Positions 3,091 through 56,440 of a DNA stretch of 64,000 nucleotides are shown one piece after another (the first letter of the stretch is position 1; each line of letters opens with the position of its first letter). Under the pieces are notes generated by a model, which saw only the letters and a list, made by a program, of their open reading frames with translations, searched no databases and was not told the DNA's origin. Made by a program: the position numbers and the translations under genes. Where the stretch lies: positions 60,246 through 124,245 of the forward strand of contig CAYSSM010000001.1 in NCBI GenBank assembly GCA_964433905.1. The letters are read 5' to 3'. This stretch comes from an uncultured Candidatus Saccharibacteria bacterium. GTDB lineage: Bacteria; Patescibacteriota; UBA1384; UBA12157; JAENIV01.

Positions 3091-4151
3091 AAGAGTTACT
3101 TACTGGCAACCAATCGGCAATCAAAGGCGCGTTAGCGGTAGGCGCAGAAATTATGACTGGCTATCCAATTACCCCTACTACGGAAATGCTGGAATATTGG
3201 GCCGAAGAGGCAAATAAGAATCCTGCTTTAAAATTTTTACAGTCAGAAGATGAGATGGCGGCCGGTTTTGCCATGATTGGCGCGATTTTAGCCGGTAAAA
3301 AAGCATTTTCTGCCACCGCCGGTCCCGGCAACATTTTGATGCAGGATGCTTTTGCGATGGCGGAAAACATGAGACTTCCGACAGTGGCTTTTATTAATCA
3401 AAGAGGAGGTCCTTCGACAGGTACGGTTATTTATTCTCAACAAGAGCTTAATTTAACTTGTTTTGGCGGCAATGGCGAAGGCTTGCGGATTGTTTATTCT
3501 TGTGCGGGCGTGCAAGATATGTATGACTATGCGATTAAAGCATTTAACACGGCTTGGAGATACCGTTTCCCGACCTTTATGCTCTCCGATGGCTATCAGG
3601 GAAAAATGAAAACTGAAATTGAAACCTATTCTTTGCAAGAAAAACAAATTGAAAATATTCCCGCCTATCCATATTTATTAAATCCGGCCAATAAAGAAAC
3701 GGTTAATTTACGCAATACTTACAATTTAGAAAAAGATTTAAACTATTTAATAGAGGAGCATAAAAAAGCTTTTGATGAAATTGTACCTGAAATTATTGAA
3801 TTTGAAGATCTTCATACTTTGGATGCTGAGATAGTTATTTTTGCTCACGGAATAATTGCATCAGCCTCAAAACAAGCAATTGACAGCATGCGATCTATGG
3901 GGGTTAAAGTAGGCTTATTTAGGCCTATCACTTTAAATCCATTTCCGAAAGATAATGCCATATCAATTGCCAAGAATAAGCGATTGATATTAGTTATTGA
4001 GTCTTCTTTAGGTCAGTTCGAAAGAGTTGTCAAAGAAAATTTGTACGGTTTGCAAACTAAGATTATTGGTCTAAAAAAACCGGCGCTTGGCATATCACCG
4101 GAAGAAATTATCTCTAAAGTAAATGATATTTTGAAGGAGCAGAATGGCTGA
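3087..4151 (+). CDS. porA: 2-oxoacid (pyruvate):ferredoxin oxidoreductase alpha subunit.
   Basis: The N-terminus GNQSAIKGALAVGAEIMTGYPITPTTEMLEYWAEE is POR/KOR alpha-like. The start overlaps the upstream stop by 4 nt. Confidence 0.8.
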   Translation: MKELLTGNQSAIKGALAVGAEIMTGYPITPTTEMLEYWAEEANKNPALKFLQSEDEMAAGFAMIGAILAGKKAFSATAGPGNILMQDAFAMAENMRLPTVAFINQRGGPSTGTVIYSQQELNLTCFGGNGEGLRIVYSCAGVQDMYDYAIKAFNTAWRYRFPTFMLSDGYQGKMKTEIETYSLQEKQIENIPAYPYLLNPANKETVNLRNTYNLEKDLNYLIEEHKKAFDEIVPEIIEFEDLHTLDAEIVIFAHGIIASASKQAIDSMRSMGVKVGLFRPITLNPFPKDNAISIAKNKRLILVIESSLGQFERVVKENLYGLQTKIIGLKKPALGISPEEIISKVNDILKEQNG

Positions 4152-5692: not shown

Positions 5693-5704
5693 CAAATTAT
5701 GCCA

Positions 5705-5747
5705 CATCTGACAATACACATCGCAAGTGAATTAGCGGATGTGTCTT
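5705..5747. repeat. REP-like palindromic element, copy 1: CCACATC..ACACATCGCAAGTG..TTAGCGGATGTGTC.
   Basis: The inverted repeat ACACATC / GATGTGT lies directly 3' of the RAYT gene. Two related copies are at 6432-6475 and 39250-39300. Confidence 0.6.
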
Positions 5748-6431: not shown

Positions 6432-6475
6432 CCACATCGTTAAAGACACATCGCAAGTGTTTAAGCGGTAGTATC
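6432..6475. repeat. REP-like palindromic element, copy 2: CCACATCGTTAAAGACACATCGCAAGTGTTTAAGCGGTAG.
   Basis: It shares CACATCG..ACACATCGCAAGTG..TTAAGCGG with copy 1 and lies just 5' of the RAYT start. Confidence 0.55.
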
Positions 6476-6574: not shown

Positions 6575-6646
6575 GGGCCTGTAGCTTAGAGGAAAAGCGT
6601 TAGTATGGCATACTAAAGATCGCGAGTTCGAGTCTCGCCAGGTCCA
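6575..6646 (+). tRNA. tRNA-Ala (anticodon GGC).
   Basis: Cloverleaf folded by hand. The acceptor stem GGGCCTG/CAGGTCC carries the G3:U70 Ala identity pair. D stem GCTT/AAGC. Anticodon stem TTAGT/ACTAA with loop ATGGCAT (U33, GGC, A37). T arm GCGAG-TTCGAGT-CTCGC. Discriminator A73. No CCA is encoded. Confidence 0.85.
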
Positions 6647-20602: not shown

Positions 20603-20716
20603 TTAACCCTGACGCTGCTTATGTTTGGGAGTACTGCAAATTACCCGCAATACTCCATGACGGCGAATTATTTTACATTTTTGACAAATTTTTTTGACCG
20701 ATGGTCTTACTTTCAT
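20603..20716 (-). CDS. rpmJ: Ribosomal protein L36 (37 aa; not in the ORF track).
   Basis: Hand translation of the minus strand gives [37 protein letters not shown]. The stop TAA is at 20603-20605. Confidence 0.85.
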
Positions 20717-20772
20717 AAGTATAAATCCTTGGTTGACACCCTGTGGTCTTTGCCACAGGGGGATTTACAAAC
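20717..20772 (-). promoter_or_regulatory. Conserved leader/repeat immediately 5' of rpmJ with a perfect 8-bp hairpin (CCCTGTGG-TCTTTG-CCACAGGG).
   Basis: In sense orientation it reads TTTGTAAATCCCCCTGTGGCAAAGACCACAGGGTGTCAACCAAGGATTTATACTT-ATG. It shares the 15-nt GGATTTATACTTATG context with map. Confidence 0.4.
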
Positions 20773-21966: not shown

Positions 21967-22684
21967 CTTTTGTTACTGCGATTGTATGTTCAAAATGAGC
22001 CGATAAGGAATTGTCGATTGTTACAACAGTCCAGCCATCGTTAAGTATCTTTACTTTCCAATCGCCAGCTGAGACCATTGGTTCGATGGCCAATGTCATC
22101 CCCTCTTTTAAAACCGGTCCTGTTTTTCTTTTGCCAAAATTTAATATTGATGGTGGTTCTTGTAAATTTGTACCAATGCCATGTCCAGCCAAATCCCGGA
22201 TAATACTGTAATTTGCGCCTTCAATAATTGATTGAATACAATTTTGAATATCACCTAAATAAACTCCGGGTTTAATTTTTGATATGCCTTCGTGAAGCGA
22301 TTCTTTGGTAATTTTTAGCAATTGTTTTTTTTTAAAATCAATTTTACCGATAGCCACGGTGGCAGCGGTGTCGGTGTGATATGATTTCCATAATATTCCA
22401 ATATCAAGACCCAAAAGATCGCCCTCGCGCAAGATTCTGTTCGATGGTATGCCATGGACGACCTCATTGTTAACTGAAGTGCAAATTGTCGCCGGATAAC
22501 CATGATGACCTAAAAAAGATGATTTAGCACCGGATTTCTTAATTTCTTCTGTTGCGATGTTGTCAAGTTCTTTGGTAGTTGTTCCGGGTTTTGAAGCAAC
22601 AGTTAGTATATTTAAAATATGAGCGGCAATTTTACCACCTTCCTTCATAATTTGAATCTCTTTTTCTGTTTTAATCGAAATCAT
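21938..22684 (-). CDS. map: Methionine aminopeptidase type I.
   Basis: MetAP pita-bread fold motifs (..GHGIG.. and ..HFEHT..). Confidence 0.9.
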   Translation of the reverse strand: MISIKTEKEIQIMKEGGKIAAHILNILTVASKPGTTTKELDNIATEEIKKSGAKSSFLGHHGYPATICTSVNNEVVHGIPSNRILREGDLLGLDIGILWKSYHTDTAATVAIGKIDFKKKQLLKITKESLHEGISKIKPGVYLGDIQNCIQSIIEGANYSIIRDLAGHGIGTNLQEPPSILNFGKRKTGPVLKEGMTLAIEPMVSAGDWKVKILNDGWTVVTIDNSLSAHFEHTIAVTKDGVEILTHE

Positions 22685-22803
22685 AAGTATAAATCCATGG
22701 TTAACACCATATGGTCTCGGTCACAGTTCCATATATCTTTCAAAAAATAGTTTTTAATTTATATTAACGCCCTGCGGTCTCTGTCACAAGGGGATTTACA
22801 AAT
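22685..22803 (-). promoter_or_regulatory. Second copy of the rpmJ-type leader upstream of map, split by an insertion with the core duplicated.
   Basis: 22685-22726 AAGTATAAATCCATGGTTAACACCATATGGTCTCGGTCACAG and 22768-22803 ..CCCTGCGGTCTCTGTCACAAGGGGATTTACAAAT compare with 20717-20772. Confidence 0.35.
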
Positions 22804-26321: not shown

Positions 26322-26388
26322 GCTTTAATAATTCTCGTAGGATCGCATTAACAACTGTGCCTGTATTTGTCTCATTGTTTCTATTATA
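26322..26388. repeat. Exact 67-bp direct duplicate of the secY 3' end; the second copy is at 26445-26511.
   Basis: GCTTTAATAATTCTCGTAGGATCGCATTAACAACTGTGCCTGTATTTGTCTCATTGTTTCTATTATA is identical in both copies by inspection. A partial third fragment lies at 26305-26320. Confidence 0.8.
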
Positions 26389-26447
26389 TTTTGCCGAAGC
26401 AAAATTCGGAAATAGAAACAATATTTTTCAATAATTAACACTTGGCT

Positions 26448-27722
26448 TTAATAATTCTCGTAGGATCGCATTAACAACTGTGCCTGTATTTGTCTCATTG
26501 TTTCTATTATAACAGAAACCATAATTAAAATACCAGTGCCACCAATTACTAAAGTATTTATCTTAGTAATTGCCTGGATAATAAACGGCAAAACAGCAAT
26601 AACTCCAAGGAATAAGGCACCGGTAAGATTAATTCGAGAGATAATTCTTGCCAGATAAGATGAAGTTTCCCCTCCGGGTCTGACACCAGGGATAAAACCG
26701 CCTTGTTTTTGCAGATTTTCTGAGATTTGATTGGGTTTTAAAACAATCCCAGTATAAAAGAAGGTGAACAAGATAACTAATATAAAGTAGAAAATTCCAT
26801 AAAACAAATTGTTATTAAACAAATTAGCAACCCATGTAGAAGCGGAAGCGAGCCACTCTGAACGAGCCTGAGTCAAGACTTTAGCCGCTACCCCAGGAAA
26901 GATCATGATCGACATGGCAAAGATAATTGGGATGACCCCAGCGGTATTTACTCTGATTGGAAGATAAGAGTCAACTCCGCCGTACGATTTCATGCCGCGA
27001 ATGCGCCTGGCGTATGATACGGGTATTTGGCGCCGACCCTCATTAACAATAATAATTAAAATAACTACAGCAATAGCAATGAGCCCAAATAAGGCTAGAC
27101 TAATAATTTTAGTCGTATCCATAACTGCCAGCGTATTTCTTACTTGGGCAGGTACACTGGCAATTATTCCTAAGGCAATAATCAACGAGATACCGTTACC
27201 GATGCCATTTTCAGAAATTAATTCTCCAATCCACATCAGCAAGATCGTGCCGGCGGTAATCGAAAGTAACATTACCGCTAATTGGAGCGGCGTCCATGAA
27301 AACAATATCCCTTGACTTTTAAGCAAAGTTAACATGCTAAAAGATTGGATCAGTGCTAACGGCACGGTGATAATTCTCGTCCAGTAATTAATTTTTTTCT
27401 GACCTGATTCACCTTCCTTTCGAAGTTCTTCCAATGAAGGAATCACCATGGTCAAAAGCTGAACAATAATCGTGGCGGTAATATACGGTCCGACACCCAT
27501 CATAATAATCGAAAAATTTTCCATCGAACCGCCGGAAAACATATTTAATAAACCAAAAATTTGGTTTCTCGAGAAAAAAGTTCTCAAAGCTTCAATATCA
27601 ACACCGGGCAGAGGAATATGAGCTAAAACTCTCGTAATAACCATTAGACTAATAGTATAGAGAATCTTTTTTCTTAGATCAGGCAGGGTAAAAACTTGAT
27701 TAATTGTTTGCCAAATACGCAT
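26448..27722 (-). CDS. secY: Preprotein translocase subunit SecY.
   Basis: 10-TM SecY pattern. Position between rplO and (normally) adk. Confidence 0.9.
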   Translation of the reverse strand: MRIWQTINQVFTLPDLRKKILYTISLMVITRVLAHIPLPGVDIEALRTFFSRNQIFGLLNMFSGGSMENFSIIMMGVGPYITATIIVQLLTMVIPSLEELRKEGESGQKKINYWTRIITVPLALIQSFSMLTLLKSQGILFSWTPLQLAVMLLSITAGTILLMWIGELISENGIGNGISLIIALGIIASVPAQVRNTLAVMDTTKIISLALFGLIAIAVVILIIIVNEGRRQIPVSYARRIRGMKSYGGVDSYLPIRVNTAGVIPIIFAMSIMIFPGVAAKVLTQARSEWLASASTWVANLFNNNLFYGIFYFILVILFTFFYTGIVLKPNQISENLQKQGGFIPGVRPGGETSSYLARIISRINLTGALFLGVIAVLPFIIQAITKINTLVIGGTGILIMVSVIIETMRQIQAQLLMRSYENY

Positions 27723-32317: not shown

Positions 32318-32986
32318 TTACAAACTTTCGATTATATCACCTTTATATATCCATACTTTTACACCAATGATGCCGTAGGTAGTTAAAGCGTCAACTTGAG
32401 CATAATCAATATCTGCCCTAAGTCGACCTAAAGGTATCGATCCATTACCATAATGTTCACGACGAGCGATTTCCGCCCCGCCTAATCGACCGGCGATAAC
32501 AACCTTAACACCCAAGGCTCTTTTTTCCATAACTTTGGCAATCGTCTGCTTGATGGCTCTTTTGTAAGCAATTCTTCGCTCGATTTGATGAACAATTTGT
32601 TGAGCCACTATTTCAGCCGATAATTCTCCGTTCTTAATTTCCATGATTTCAATTTCAATTTTTTTATTTGCTAAACCGGTCTTATTATTTCTTATTTGAA
32701 GACAATTTTTTAATAAATACGTTTTAATCTCGTTAATTCCTTGACCACTGCGGCCAATTAAAATACCCGGTTTTGAGCTATAAATAGCAACTTTTATGGC
32801 ATCTTGATCGCGCGATAATTCTATTTTTGCAACTCCGGCGTTTTTGCCGAATCTTTTGCCAAGCAGGGTTCTAATCTCAATATCTTCAGCTAAATTTTTA
32901 GCAAAGCTCCTGGGGGCAAACCATTTTGACTGCCAATTTTTATTTAGTTGTAAGCGAAAGCCAATCGGGTTTACTTTATGACCCAT
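32318..32986 (-). CDS. rpsC: Ribosomal protein S3.
   Basis: MGHKVNPIGFRLQL... is the canonical S3 N-terminus, so I chose M9 of the ORF-track ORF as the start. Confidence 0.85.
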   Translation of the reverse strand: MGHKVNPIGFRLQLNKNWQSKWFAPRSFAKNLAEDIEIRTLLGKRFGKNAGVAKIELSRDQDAIKVAIYSSKPGILIGRSGQGINEIKTYLLKNCLQIRNNKTGLANKKIEIEIMEIKNGELSAEIVAQQIVHQIERRIAYKRAIKQTIAKVMEKRALGVKVVIAGRLGGAEIARREHYGNGSIPLGRLRADIDYAQVDALTTYGIIGVKVWIYKGDIIESL

Positions 32987-33551
32987 TTTTACCTCTTTTT
33001 TTATTTTCAAAAGGCTGAATACCTCGTAGCCCTTCGGTCTGAGACCTCAGGATCGAAGACTTGCTACGAGGATGAAGCCTATTTGGAAACAAACTTGCCC
33101 CATCGGGGATACTCCGCCGCTTGCTGCGGAGTAGTTTATTTTCGTTTGAAAATATTATTGTTGCGTGCGATGATCGTTTTAAGATTGCGGTGGCCCGACC
33201 TCGATGAATCATGCGACGGCGTTTTAATTTTGGCCCTTCGTTAATCATTATTGACTTAATATAGATGGGGCCGTCAAGATTATATTTATTTTTAGCAATG
33301 TCGATCCCATTCTTGATGACCGAAATCAACGGTTTAGCGGCAAGCTTAAAAGAAAAAGTCAAAATATCAACTGCTTTTTCCGCTTCCTGGCCGATAACTA
33401 AATGTGCCACTAAGCTCATTTTATCGGGAGTCGTTCTAATAAAACGATCGCGGACAACTATTTCCTGAATTTTTTCAGATTTCTTGTTATCGAATTTAAC
33501 TTTATCTATTTTTTGCGTATCGTTTACTTTTACTTTTTCCACAATTGCCAT
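32976..33551 (-). CDS. rplV: Ribosomal protein L22 with a ~50-aa basic C-terminal extension encoded by a GC-rich hairpin repeat (copy C of the new family).
   Basis: The L22 domain spans about aa 28-140. The frame then runs through 33131-32976 without a stop and ends 11 nt inside rpsC. Confidence 0.8.
   Translation of the reverse strand: MAIVEKVKVNDTQKIDKVKFDNKKSEKIQEIVVRDRFIRTTPDKMSLVAHLVIGQEAEKAVDILTFSFKLAAKPLISVIKNGIDIAKNKYNLDGPIYIKSIMINEGPKLKRRRMIHRGRATAILKRSSHATIIFSNENKLLRSKRRSIPDGASLFPNRLHPRSKSSILRSQTEGLRGIQPFENKKRGKNGS
33016..33137 (-). repeat. Hairpin repeat family, copy C (minus orientation), inside the rplV 3' end.
   Basis: Its reverse complement reads AAACTACTCCGCAGCAAGCGGCGGAGTATCC..GCAAGTTTGTTTCCAAATAGG..TCCTCGTAGCAAG-(23-nt insert)-CTACGAGGTATTC. 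It aligns with 51451-51545. Confidence 0.7.
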
Positions 33552-39249: not shown

Positions 39250-39300
39250 TTTCTATCCTTTAGACACATCGTTATATCCACATCGTAAGTGTATTAGTAG
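39250..39300. repeat. Solo REP-like palindromic element, copy 3.
   Basis: AGACACATCGTTATATCCACATCGTAAGTGTATTAGTAGATGTGCTC shares CACATCG(N7)CACATCG(C/T)AAGTG and the CACATC/GATGTG inverted repeat with 5705-5747. Confidence 0.55.
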
Positions 39301-39357
39301 ATGTGCTCTTTCCTTATTTAGATGCTATTTTATGTTCTCGACTATGCTCGAACTAAA

Positions 39358-51209: not shown

Positions 51210-51452
51210 ATGAAACAATCAATTGCATTATTAACTATCTTTTTGAGTTTAATCGTATTTTCCAATGTTACCAATGTCGCCAGAAATCAAAAACAAACCT
51301 TAGTTACTCCGTCGCCAGTAGTCAACAAAAGTGATATCAAGGATGCAGAAGTCAACCGCTACAACAACAAGTACCAAATCCAAGTTAATTATGATGTTAA
51401 TTCAATTACTGAAAAATTAAACTGGATAACTCAAAACGAATTAGCCAAATAA
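51210..51452 (+). CDS. Small secreted protein (signal peptide plus a ~55-aa mature part).
   Basis: Strong SD TAAGGAGCAAAAAATG and signal peptide MKQSIALLTIFLSLIVFSNV. Confidence 0.5.
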   Translation: MKQSIALLTIFLSLIVFSNVTNVARNQKQTLVTPSPVVNKSDIKDAEVNRYNNKYQIQVNYDVNSITEKLNWITQNELAK

Positions 51453-51545
51453 ACTACCTCGCAGCAAGCTGACGAGGTATCCCTGAAGGGAAAGTTTGTT
51501 TTTAACAGGTTTTCATCCTCGTAGCAAGCTACGAGGTATTCAACC
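51451..51545 (+). repeat. Hairpin repeat family, copy A (full length, two hairpins).
   Basis: AAACTACCTCGCAGCAAGCTGACGAGGTATCCCTGAAGGGAAAGTTTGTTTTTAACAGGTTTTCATCCTCGTAGCAAGCTACGAGGTATTC begins within the stop codon of the small ORF. Confidence 0.7.
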
Positions 51546-51606
51546 TCTGAAAATAAGCCACACTGCGATAAAACCTCAATGTATTGCCTAAGATGAAAAG
51601 TGTATT

Positions 51607-52331: not shown

Positions 52332-54110
52332 CTACGGGTAAATGACCGTTCCCGGATCAGGCAAGATGAACGGAACAGCGTCGTTATTGTTGAGTAAGTC
52401 GAGCTGACCCGCCATCGCCGTTCGTTGGGAATCGCTCCCACTCTGCCAGACCTGAATTGCCTGGGTAACCAACGTCTGCGTTGACACCCAAGAACCATTC
52501 AACCAGATCGCAGCTCCTACACCACCCAGCCGATGCCGACAGTTCATAATGAAAGCATCGAGCTGTTGAGCCAGTTGTTCACGCGGATCGCCGCCGGCGT
52601 TGGAATCAACAAGGAAATGGCTTTGCTCGGCCAAGGCCGAACCGGCAGGAGCGATGGTCTCTCCCCAGTCGCCGTTGGCAGCAGCAACGGGGGTTCCGTT
52701 AGCAAAAAAACCGTCAATCGGCTCGTCGCCGGCGCCAAAGTAACTGGACGGCGCTTGCCACGGAGCCAGACTGTTAAGGTATGCAATGTCAGACGGAGTA
52801 GTTTCACCCAACCCGTTCTTGTTATGCCAATACCCCTTGGTATCAAAATCAGCCTGGCCTTGGCGAATGTTGCCGAACTCCACTCGAGCCGAATCACCTG
52901 AAGCCAGTTGAATCTGCCTTGTCATGGGAGTAGTGTTCACCCACCCACCAGAAAGAGGCATCCGTTCGGTGATATCGTACAAACCCGGCATGATCCAGAA
53001 GGTGTCACAACCGTTAGACTTGGTTATGGAAACGCTGTCCCATACCCACCCTGCCACGGTTGTGCCATGCTCGTAGATCCACCAGCCGGGAATACCAGGC
53101 TCGCCTGCGTCCCAGATACCGTCGCCATCGAGGTCGTAGAACTTACAGACCGTTAGACGGGCCAACTGGATGTTGCCGAAGATAACTTCATGAGTTTCCC
53201 GGGAAGTCCCGGCAACCAAGAAATAGGCCGCAGGATAGTCGCGGATGCGGACGCCGTCGAGGTAGGTGCAGGTGTACATCCACCCTTCGCGCTGTTCCTC
53301 AACGAAGTTCCAAAATCCAGCCGGTTCAGTGGTGATCTGGATGGGCGTATAGTAAGTGTTGGTAACACCGAGGGGATCGATTGCATCAACCCGCCAACCA
53401 GTGATTTCCAACTCGCCTGCATCCCAGATACCGTTACCGTTAGCATCGTTGAACTTCTTAACAGTCACGACCGGCGGCGTATATGGAGGACCATTACGAC
53501 GCACCTTAAAGTTGTCGGTCTTGCTGTCCGGTGGCCTGAAACCGTGATAATTCCCCGGGCTGTAGCCGTTGTCAACGAGGTTGGGATCGCCGATGAAGTT
53601 TTCGCACGGAGTTATCCATACCTTGTAGACACCACCCTTATTGGGTGTGTCAAGGTAGGGCATCAACTGAACAGTGATCGCGCCCAGTTCAGGGTGATCG
53701 ATATCGATGCCCGTCTTGTGAGTGCAGTCGACTTCCACCCAGACACCCCTGACCTTCGTCAGCTTGGTGCACGGGTAGACATAGTCGATGACCCCAAGAG
53801 CACTGACGTGGACCTTGCGGCACTTAACCGCGTCTGTCGAGAGAAGAACCTTCCCTGACGGGTCAGTGACCTGAAAGTAGTAATCGCCCTCGTTAAGCCC
53901 CGCCGCGCCCGCAGGCGCGTTGGACCCAGGCCCGCCATCGAGATAGACATCCTCTTTGGCCGCGAAGATGTTAGCGTTGACTCGCGAACCGTCAGCCGTG
54001 GTCGTAAAAATCGCCCCCGGCATCGGCCCGGCCAAAGCCTGAGTGCTGGCCAGTGCCAACACCCCCAAAGTAGCCAGCACAACCATAATCAGCACAACCC
54101 TTCGTCCCAT
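52332..54110 (-). CDS. Secreted protein with two SdrD-B-like (Cna-B type, Ca-binding) repeat domains; GC-rich, probably of foreign origin.
   Basis: Signal peptide MGRRVVLIMVVLATLGVLALASTQALAGP. FNDANGNGIWDAGELEITGW and FYDLDGDGIWDAGEPGIPGW match the D.NGNG..D.GE.G..G motif. Codon usage is strikingly G/C-rich versus the flanking genes. Confidence 0.75.
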   Translation of the reverse strand: MGRRVVLIMVVLATLGVLALASTQALAGPMPGAIFTTTADGSRVNANIFAAKEDVYLDGGPGSNAPAGAAGLNEGDYYFQVTDPSGKVLLSTDAVKCRKVHVSALGVIDYVYPCTKLTKVRGVWVEVDCTHKTGIDIDHPELGAITVQLMPYLDTPNKGGVYKVWITPCENFIGDPNLVDNGYSPGNYHGFRPPDSKTDNFKVRRNGPPYTPPVVTVKKFNDANGNGIWDAGELEITGWRVDAIDPLGVTNTYYTPIQITTEPAGFWNFVEEQREGWMYTCTYLDGVRIRDYPAAYFLVAGTSRETHEVIFGNIQLARLTVCKFYDLDGDGIWDAGEPGIPGWWIYEHGTTVAGWVWDSVSITKSNGCDTFWIMPGLYDITERMPLSGGWVNTTPMTRQIQLASGDSARVEFGNIRQGQADFDTKGYWHNKNGLGETTPSDIAYLNSLAPWQAPSSYFGAGDEPIDGFFANGTPVAAANGDWGETIAPAGSALAEQSHFLVDSNAGGDPREQLAQQLDAFIMNCRHRLGGVGAAIWLNGSWVSTQTLVTQAIQVWQSGSDSQRTAMAGQLDLLNNNDAVPFILPDPGTVIYP

Positions 54111-56311: not shown

Positions 56312-56370
56312 ATGTATAAGGGAAAGCCTACAATATCCAGTTTAACTTAACACGCAAGAATGTCAAATAT

Positions 56371-56430
56371 AAACTACTCTGCGGCTTGCCGCAGAGTATC
56401 CTGCGGAAAGTTTGTTTCCAAACAGGTTGA
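56371..56430 (+). repeat. Hairpin repeat family, copy B (short; lacks the second hairpin).
   Basis: AAACTACTCTGCGGCTTGCCGCAGAGTATCCTGCGGAAAGTTTGTTTCCAAACAGGTTG lies directly downstream of the infB stop. Confidence 0.65.
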
Positions 56431-56440
56431 AAATAAAAAC

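Follow-up and report, generated by a model that had tools for sequence, protein, structure and literature searches.

How does a gene for a universal ribosomal protein come to be read without interruption through a palindromic repeat? The question is raised by rplV, the gene for ribosomal protein uL22 (L22), in a 64,000-nt stretch of DNA from an uncultured Candidatus Saccharibacteria bacterium (contig CAYSSM010000001.1, positions 60,246 to 124,245; hereafter the window). Three related hairpin repeats, which we call copies A, B and C, are found in the window, and copy C lies at the 3' end of rplV. We consider copy C to be, with a probability of roughly 0.72, a non-autonomous, mosaic, multi-hairpin DNA repeat of the Candidate Phyla Radiation (CPR) that was inserted in the tail of uL22, is read through, and is tolerated.

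The rplV locus and its product

An S10/spc ribosomal protein operon lies on the minus strand of the window with the gene order L2-S19-L22-S3-L16, and its rplV open reading frame (ORF; 32976..33551, minus strand) is unbroken over 191 codons. That the 191-aa product is uL22 follows from its match to Pfam PF00237, the location of rplV between rpsS and rpsC, and matches to uL22 chains in the PDB. In an AlphaFold2 model built with 16 homologues, residues 31-135 are confident and residues 140-191 are coil, with pLDDT about 50. The rplV stop codon (TAA, 32978-32976) lies 11 nt within rpsC, the ATG of which (32986-32984) is preceded by GAGG. A preliminary description of this DNA had the frame running open through copy C to a stop 11 nt inside rpsC, and the tail that we read matches the sequence quoted there exactly. 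The features of the locus, in the direction of transcription, are as follows.

33150..33452, minus strand: uL22 fold, aa 34-134 (Pfam PF00237, E = 4.6e-23; aa 31-135 confident in AlphaFold2)
33135..33143, minus strand: upstream copy of the 9-nt direct repeat GAAAATAAA, which may be the target or the element's 5' end; its counterpart is 135 nt away
32998..33142, minus strand: repeat copy C, core ATAAAC...AAAATAA at 33139-33001, rplV codons ~138-184 (covariance model 91.3 bits, E = 1e-16; alignment to copies A and B)
33000..33008, minus strand: downstream copy of the direct repeat GAAAATAAA, at the element's 3' end and 45 codons (135 nt) away from the upstream copy
32976..32999, minus strand: native end of rplV, KKRGKNGS*, overlapping the rpsC Shine-Dalgarno sequence (GAGG, 32992-32995) and ATG (32984-32986); the 11-nt overlap is also present in two relatives, L100 and L101

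Codons 140-184 of rplV fall in copy C, and the insert accounts for 45 of the 52 residues of the tail. The inserted segment is basic (pI of the tail about 12), and the tryptic peptides expected from it are SIPDGASLFPNR, SSILR, SQTEGLR and GIQPFENK. The window uL22 shows 100% identity to the uL22 of the CPR organism Berkelbacteria bacterium GW2011_GWB1_38_5. In separate JGI, ENA and Logan assemblies, 16 contigs code for exactly this 191-aa protein; at the five of these loci that we read, the DNA is identical through the repeat.

Insertion into a pre-existing tail

Deletion of one GAAAATAAA unit together with the intervening DNA (135 nt) yields a 146-aa uL22 ending ...IIFSNENKKRGKNGS (NENKKRGKNGS); in this reconstructed form the stop is unchanged and the rpsC Shine-Dalgarno sequence is intact. 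The nearest uL22 homologues have ~50% identity and are 118-165 aa long, and none of them aligned to residues 140-184; among 5.8 billion proteins, no other uL22 covers the inserted segment. This comparison of orthologues, a check that the preliminary description had asked for, indicates that the insertion is specific to its lineage. In CPR relatives, uL22 already ends in a Lys-rich tail whose length varies and reaches about 40 residues, and several of these proteins end in ...GS. In L100 and L101 the tails RERNGS* and ASSGS* lie over a start of the form ATG- or GTG-GGTCATAA, again with an overlap of 11 nt between rplV and rpsC.

Because relatives keep the 11-nt overlap and the ...GS* ending, the stop is ancestral and the repeat lies within an existing tail. 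The event thus reconstructed is an in-frame insertion of 45 codons, eight codons ahead of the ancestral stop. The same comparison rules out the loss of the true L22 stop, which had been put forward as an alternative. It also limits the proposal that the repeat created an extension of ~50 aa: 45 residues do come from the repeat, whereas the extension as a whole does not, given that CPR relatives already have Lys-rich tails. The repeat had likewise been placed at 33131-32976; it is real but ends at ~33000, and the last ~25 nt (32976-33000, with KKRGKNGS, the rpsC Shine-Dalgarno sequence and the start codon) are native.

We envisage that copy C landed on AAT-AAA (Asn-Lys) in the Lys-rich C-terminal tail of uL22, at that distance ahead of the ancestral stop. 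As copy C is without a stop in the rplV frame, ribosomes would most likely read through the 135-nt insert, rejoin KKRGKNGS* and end at the original stop; the rpsC Shine-Dalgarno sequence and the stop/start overlap are undisturbed. Translation of this kind would yield a uL22 of 191 aa in which the fold is normal and a basic segment of 45 residues, disordered by prediction, is tolerated. The insertion was probably neutral or nearly so, since tail length varies among relatives and long C-terminal extensions of uL22 occur in solved ribosomes. There, uL22 chains are 153-197 aa long and the fold ends about 20-70 residues before the C-terminus (for example 5v7q chain S, 197 aa, which we take to be mycobacterial, and 7ood chain r, 159 aa), so that, as in the window uL22, tens of extra residues follow the fold; those tails are, however, lineage-wide and not known to come from repeat insertion. 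The presence of such chains in solved ribosomes shows that long tails are tolerated at the C-terminus of uL22.

A family of structured repeats in CPR assemblies

The other two copies in the window, and the structural parts of copy C, are given below.

51446..51559, plus strand: copy A; its TAA at 51450-51452 is the stop of an upstream 80-aa ORF (related to copy C by alignment and covariance model)
56366..56439, plus strand: copy B, a short form without HP2, which lies antisense in the spacer of infB and an M23 peptidase gene, the infB stop being 4 nt away (alignment, covariance model)
33110..33133, minus strand: helix HP1 of copy C, TACTCCGC...GCGGAGTA (97% paired, seven pairs with compensatory changes)
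33098..33108, minus strand: small helix P2, CCCCGATGGGG (covariance model, fold)
33076..33094, minus strand: long-range helix P3, 5' strand, GTTTGTTTCCAAATAGGCT (six of six modelled pairs covary; subfamily compensation)
33022..33071, minus strand: helix HP2, CCTCGTAGC...GCTACGAGG; the loop holds a nested hairpin module of ~29 nt (about 33031-33060), also present in L080
33000..33016, minus strand: long-range helix P3, 3' strand, AGCCTTTTGAAAATAAA (covariation, single-sequence fold)

A pattern built on the three window copies retrieved 18 more copies from species-representative genomes: ten in FK_Sedi_B_Bin.101, seven in two Saccharibacteria metagenome-assembled genomes (MAGs) and one in a Patescibacteria MAG. 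With a looser pattern, 69 metagenome loci were recovered, and a covariance model then scored 95 copies, 82 of them distinct. The repeats belong to a family of which about 100 copies were retrieved, in Berkelbacteria, Saccharibacteria and other CPR assemblies. FK_Sedi_B_Bin.101 carries the label Bacillota, which is unverified. No assembly holds more copies than one with that label (L006-L022, JAMDEM01 contigs; 10 or more), while every other host is CPR; this could be a mislabelled bin or could reflect transfer across phyla.

Common to family members are conserved ends (5' ATAAACTAC, 3' AAAATAA) and three or four helices that covary, whereas nested modules are optional; the consensus is ATAAAC-TAC[HP1]GTA-T-[P2: CCC-loop-GGG]-MAA-GTTTGTTTT...[HP2]...AAAATAA(A). 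Helix cells in the family are paired in 92% of cases, against 28-52% with slid partners; compensatory changes occur in 24 of 28 pairs, and double-change cells number 368 against 110 in shuffles, all these counts being biased towards the covariance model, to which the alignment was fitted. Single-sequence folds of six diverse copies independently yield the same architecture. P3 is formed by the central GTTTGTTTT... segment and the ...AAAATAAA of the 3' terminus, and shows compensation between subfamilies in that a central GTTTGTATTCAA accompanies a 3' TTGATTATAAA. For copy C the predicted fold of the element is -56 kcal/mol, and folding compared with shuffled sequence gives z = -5.3 for the region (201 nt) and z = -6.3 for the element alone.

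The build of the family is a mosaic one. HP2 is optional (missing in copy B, L092 and L044), single-hairpin mini forms exist, and some copies contain other small nested hairpins, such as the additional one in copy C's HP2 loop, which recurs in L080. Nested modules are flanked by short direct repeats, TAATA or TTCA. HP1 and HP2 are alike within an assembly and different between assemblies, and near-identical copies are found at different loci of one assembly (for example L050, L072, L082, L084 and L090). The near-identical copies at different loci, the flanked nested modules, the optional HP2 and the mini forms together point to mobility or mosaicism.

Some individual copies have further peculiarities. 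A 32-nt module, AATAAGCAAAGCTTGTTATTCACCCCGTTCAT, is nested once in the elements of L020 (3600-3650) and L070 and three times in tandem in that of L053 (2547-2754), flanked by TAATA direct repeats. At L013 (4395-4470), HP2 is interrupted by a different palindromic repeat, GTCATTCTGAACGAAGTGAAGAATCTC...GAGATCCTTCGCAATGCTCAGGATGAC, which we take to resemble a repeat widespread in metagenomic assemblies. In L072, the element and 160 nt of its upstream flank, together 218 nt, occur at 2571-2788 and again 1095 nt away at 3666-3883, with the duplication reaching the end of the contig; it may reflect a larger unit of repetition or a wrap-around in the assembly.

The family has apparently not been described before, in either its conserved ends or its mosaic build. 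Rfam gave no hit at the gathering score in the window, and only chance-level hits (E >= 0.25) on copy C and four canonical copies. BLAST searches of plasmid and phage collections gave no match to the family, and, within the literature searched, no earlier description of such a CPR repeat was found. Four pattern matches in viral contigs were rejected as chance matches: they lie inside phage coding sequence, have no hairpins, and receive no score from the covariance model.

Positions of the copies and genes that read into them

In 26.5% of the distinct copies (22 of 83), the element's TAA closes a frame that has been open for 50 codons or more; rpoB (L020, with rpoC next), uL2 in an S10 operon (L030), SecD and glycyl-tRNA synthetase are examples. 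In the same 639 kb, 5.3% of all ATAAA sites serve as such stops, and 26.0% of those outside long open frames. Given this match of 26.5% to the 26.0% background for non-genic sites, special targeting of stop codons need not be invoked and we reject it; most simply, ATAAA sites would be where the element settles, and gene-breaking copies would have been lost. In terms of mechanism, the element would have moved as DNA into ATAAA sites, and selection would then have left copies only at gene ends and in spacers. Between co-directional genes, 23 copies lie in sense and 16 in antisense orientation.

Several other genes enter their copies in the same frame as uL22, with AAT or GAT ahead of AAA-CTA. 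The gene for uL15 (L023) enters a copy on a contig that ends before any stop, and copies add 18 codons to FtsH (L089) and 11 codons each to a DUF2231 protein (L006) and a DUF433 protein (L032). In all four genes the Pfam domain ends just ahead of the element. The added peptides are alike and take the form KLL(R/C)xKxxSIPxGKFV, as in KLLRGKPRSIPTGKFV, KLLCGKPQSIPAGKFV and, in uL22, KLLRSKRRSIPDGASLF. Such read-in by genes in the same frame affects only about six of the 83 copies, and of these only the copy in uL22 stays open over its whole length and leads back into the native frame. Contacts with core genes are located at L023:6911-7414 (read-in by uL15), L030:1431-1518 (uL2 stop provided by the TAA of the element) and L020:3561-3705 (rpoB stop inside the copy between rpoB and rpoC).

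The open frame in rplV should not itself be taken as a sign of selection. Among 73 distinct copies, 31 are stop-free in the uL22 frame and 32 have a length that is a multiple of three; 19 (26%) are both, which makes the open frame in rplV unremarkable and rules out its use as evidence for selection.

Alternative explanations

A number of points weigh against copy C being a tolerated DNA insertion. The insertion is reconstructed rather than observed, as neither an empty site nor a close relative was found in the collections searched: the reconstructed 35-mer is unmatched in metagenome contigs, and the protein collection holds no uL22 of 50% to 100% identity to the window uL22. Translation through the insert is predicted from the sequence, no transposase or other mobilising gene is linked to the family at the loci examined, and the element lacks terminal inverted repeats. 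Conserved unpaired nucleotides, the long-range helix and the TNCG loops of P2 could moreover signal function at the RNA level. The chief role of the repeat might then be that of a functional structured RNA, placed between cistrons or where genes end (a 3'-end stabiliser, an intercistronic insulator or coupler, or an antisense intrinsic terminator), and the uL22 extension a by-product; we think this unlikely. Unpaired positions are indeed conserved across lineages, P3 has compensatory changes between subfamilies, P2 loops are mostly TNCG (UNCG in RNA), many copies span the distance from a stop codon to just ahead of the next Shine-Dalgarno sequence, and on the opposite strand HP1 followed by GTTTATTTT resembles an intrinsic terminator, copy B being so oriented 4 nt past infB. 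Both orientations are common, however (23 and 16); G.T pairs are not in excess of A.C pairs (32 and 49), Rfam holds no match, and the association with stop codons equals the neutral expectation. The loop evidence is ambiguous, since TNCG reads as C-GNA-G on the other strand and C-GNA-G forms a very stable DNA hairpin. In addition, the secD genes of two genomes (L073 and L065) are followed, at one and the same position, by copies whose 3' halves are degenerate. More doubtful still is the proposal that the repeat is an undescribed, CPR-wide class of structured RNA rather than inert selfish DNA, in which the 5' UAA would stop the upstream gene and the central GUUUGUUU would pair alternately with the 5' AAAUAAAC or the 3' AAAAUAAA, forming a ribosome-sensitive switch for coupling, processing or termination between cistrons, or else an RNA-driven, self-excising or self-mobilising module. 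If that were true, the rplV copy would be a module working inside a coding sequence.

The remaining explanations deny either that the segment is part of uL22 or that it came from the repeat. It is quite improbable that the insert is absent from mature uL22, with the RNA cleaved or spliced at the direct repeats, or translation stalled by the hairpins, and a functional protein of about 140-146 aa. The great stability of the element would suit such a view (-56 kcal/mol, z = -6.3), as would the complementarity of the central GTTTGTTT to each of the two ends, AAATAAAC on the 5' side and AAAATAAA on the 3' side, loosely like an internal guide; but neither a ribozyme nor an intron family matches the element, excision would serve nothing in intergenic DNA, where most copies lie, and several other genes end inside their copies. 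Hairpins of the size of copy C are unwound by translating ribosomes, which also counts against an untranslated insert. We give hardly any credence to a sequencing or assembly artefact, such as a base missing in the GAAAATAAA run with uL22 truly ending at about 139 aa. The TAA of the element does lie one base out of frame, beside an A-run, but the agreement of protein and DNA among the independent assemblies excludes the assembly error that the preliminary description had allowed for, and the downstream frame rejoins the ancestral ...NGS* stop exactly, unlike the product of a frameshift error. The chance that the extension is simply an old, lineage-typical tail of uL22, resembling the repeats by accident, appears negligible as well. 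Basic tails are frequent in CPR uL22, but the covariance score is 91 bits, every helix of copy C is common to about 100 copies elsewhere, and no homologue aligned to the inserted residues. An ancient extension unrelated to the other repeats, the second outcome that would have told against the earlier proposal, is therefore not borne out; copy C is homologous to copies A and B, as that proposal held.

Comparison with known repeat systems and mobilisers

The preliminary description likened the insert to the Rickettsia palindromic elements (RPEs), which are multi-copy hairpin repeats of ~100-150 bp that sometimes lie in-frame in protein genes, adding a tolerated, family-typical peptide (PMC10969869). 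The CPR repeat is likewise ~100-150 bp long, present in many copies and found in-frame, and uL22, uL15, FtsH and others gain KLLRxKxxSIPxGKFV-like peptides; the RPE hallmark, in-frame insertion adding a conserved, element-encoded peptide, is thus found in about six of 83 copies. With RPEs compared by description, the repeat differs in host phylum and architecture and appears to differ in sequence, being a mosaic with conserved TAA-bearing ends, and its copies lie mostly at stop codons and in spacers with few read by genes, whereas nearly half of RPEs lie in ORFs. The resemblance therefore holds for a palindromic insertion kept open in-frame, with a peptide shared by uL15, FtsH, DUF2231 and DUF433 proteins, and not for membership of the RPE family, to which the repeat is an analogue only. 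Pneumococcal BOX, ERIC and enterobacterial RU-1/2/3 elements are also modular, intergenic and occasionally present in genes with open frames (PMC2759123, PMC10969869), in line with the optional HP2, tandem 32-nt modules and nested hairpins seen here; we found no sequence relationship to them, and the CPR repeat has other ends and a preference for ATAAA.

Like REP and BIME sequences, the repeat consists of short, GC-rich, covarying hairpins that are extragenic, homogeneous within a genome and variable between genomes; unlike them, it also has a long-range helix and single-stranded blocks that are conserved. CTAC...GTAT frames HP1, which puts GTAG after the hairpin on the other strand, an arrangement unlike that of enterobacterial REPs, which have a 5'-GTAG head. 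Y1_Tnp genes similar to the REP-associated tyrosine transposases (RAYTs) were located near two copies, in L096 and L059, and confirmed by Pfam. One CPR family of 181-aa Y1_Tnp proteins is single-copy and syntenic between assemblies (L096:1-1240, L097:9500-11100, L098:9600-10800, L099:9500-10900), its genes being flanked on both sides by separate REP-like hairpin arrays (CAAGCTAAAGCTTG, GCTACG...CGTAGC and CAGCCTTTAGGCTG); this looks like a classical REP/RAYT system in Patescibacteria. The covariance model found no copy of the repeat studied here in 61.7 kb around three of the Y1_Tnp genes (three 20-kb loci), and the 64-kb window contains no Y1 gene. We have dropped RAYT as the cognate mobiliser on these grounds, the Y1_Tnp genes being flanked by another REP family and no studied repeat lying around the three.

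MITEs, the miniature inverted-repeat transposable elements, are similarly small, non-coding, multi-copy and structured, and short direct repeats flank both the element and its nested modules. The terminal inverted repeats of DDE-type MITEs are, however, lacking. The ends ATAAACTAC... and ...CAAAATAA are direct repeats, comparison of the 5' end ATAAACTAC with the reverse complement of the 3' end (TTATTTTG) gives no terminal inverted repeat, and the only inverted complementarity is that of the central GTTTGTTT segment to either end. The flank is a constant ATAAA at both ends (the 9-nt GAAAATAAA in copy C), either a duplicated target or an end borne by the element, in place of the variable duplication of MITEs, and no cognate transposase was found. 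The absence of terminal inverted repeats and the presence of hairpins near the ends are shared with PATEs derived from IS200/IS605. Two similar hairpins in direct orientation and a fixed ATAAA flank are present; yet single-hairpin and HP2-less forms exist, and neither tnpA nor tnpB was found near copies at the loci examined.

Significance for CPR genomes

From RPEs and from intragenic ERIC and RU elements (PMC10969869, PMC2759123), the in-frame presence of small structured repeats in genes is a known phenomenon, seen here in a new host and with a new repeat family. What is new is the CPR host group, the family itself, and the inclusion of universal ribosomal protein genes among those affected. 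CPR genomes, although streamlined and very small, still bear a proliferating family of structured repeats, and this family reaches core operons (rplV-rpsC here; elsewhere, in other assemblies, rpoB-rpoC, rplB-rpsS and rplO at its 3' end). It can add peptide segments to universal ribosomal proteins, which extends RPE-type tail evolution to a distant lineage. For annotation of CPR genomes, gene ends lengthened or shortened by the element are to be expected, and the covariance model and consensus offer a handle for masking or studying the family. With neither a known mobilising enzyme nor an Rfam entry, the family is a defined target for work on the movement of small repeats in transposase-poor bacteria. 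The terminator-like form of HP1 on the antisense strand could matter for copies such as B, 4 nt after infB.

Other features of the window

An island of 55-57% GC (52500-54000, against a background of ~37%) is spanned by a 592-aa ORF (52332-54110, minus strand) adjoining copy A, and looks horizontally acquired. Direct repeats of 67 nt at 26322-26388 and 26445-26511 are 100% identical and 123 nt apart. A further pair, at 20713-20771 and 22681-22802, is 85% identical and contains a GC-rich hairpin, CCCTGTGGTCTTTGCCACAGGGGG, that is unrelated to the family of copy C. A 44-nt repeat with CACATC...GATGTG arms is present three times (5702-5745, 6432-6475 and 39264-39307; 70-75% identical), and two of its copies are close to the one tRNA gene (6575-6646) that we found in the window.

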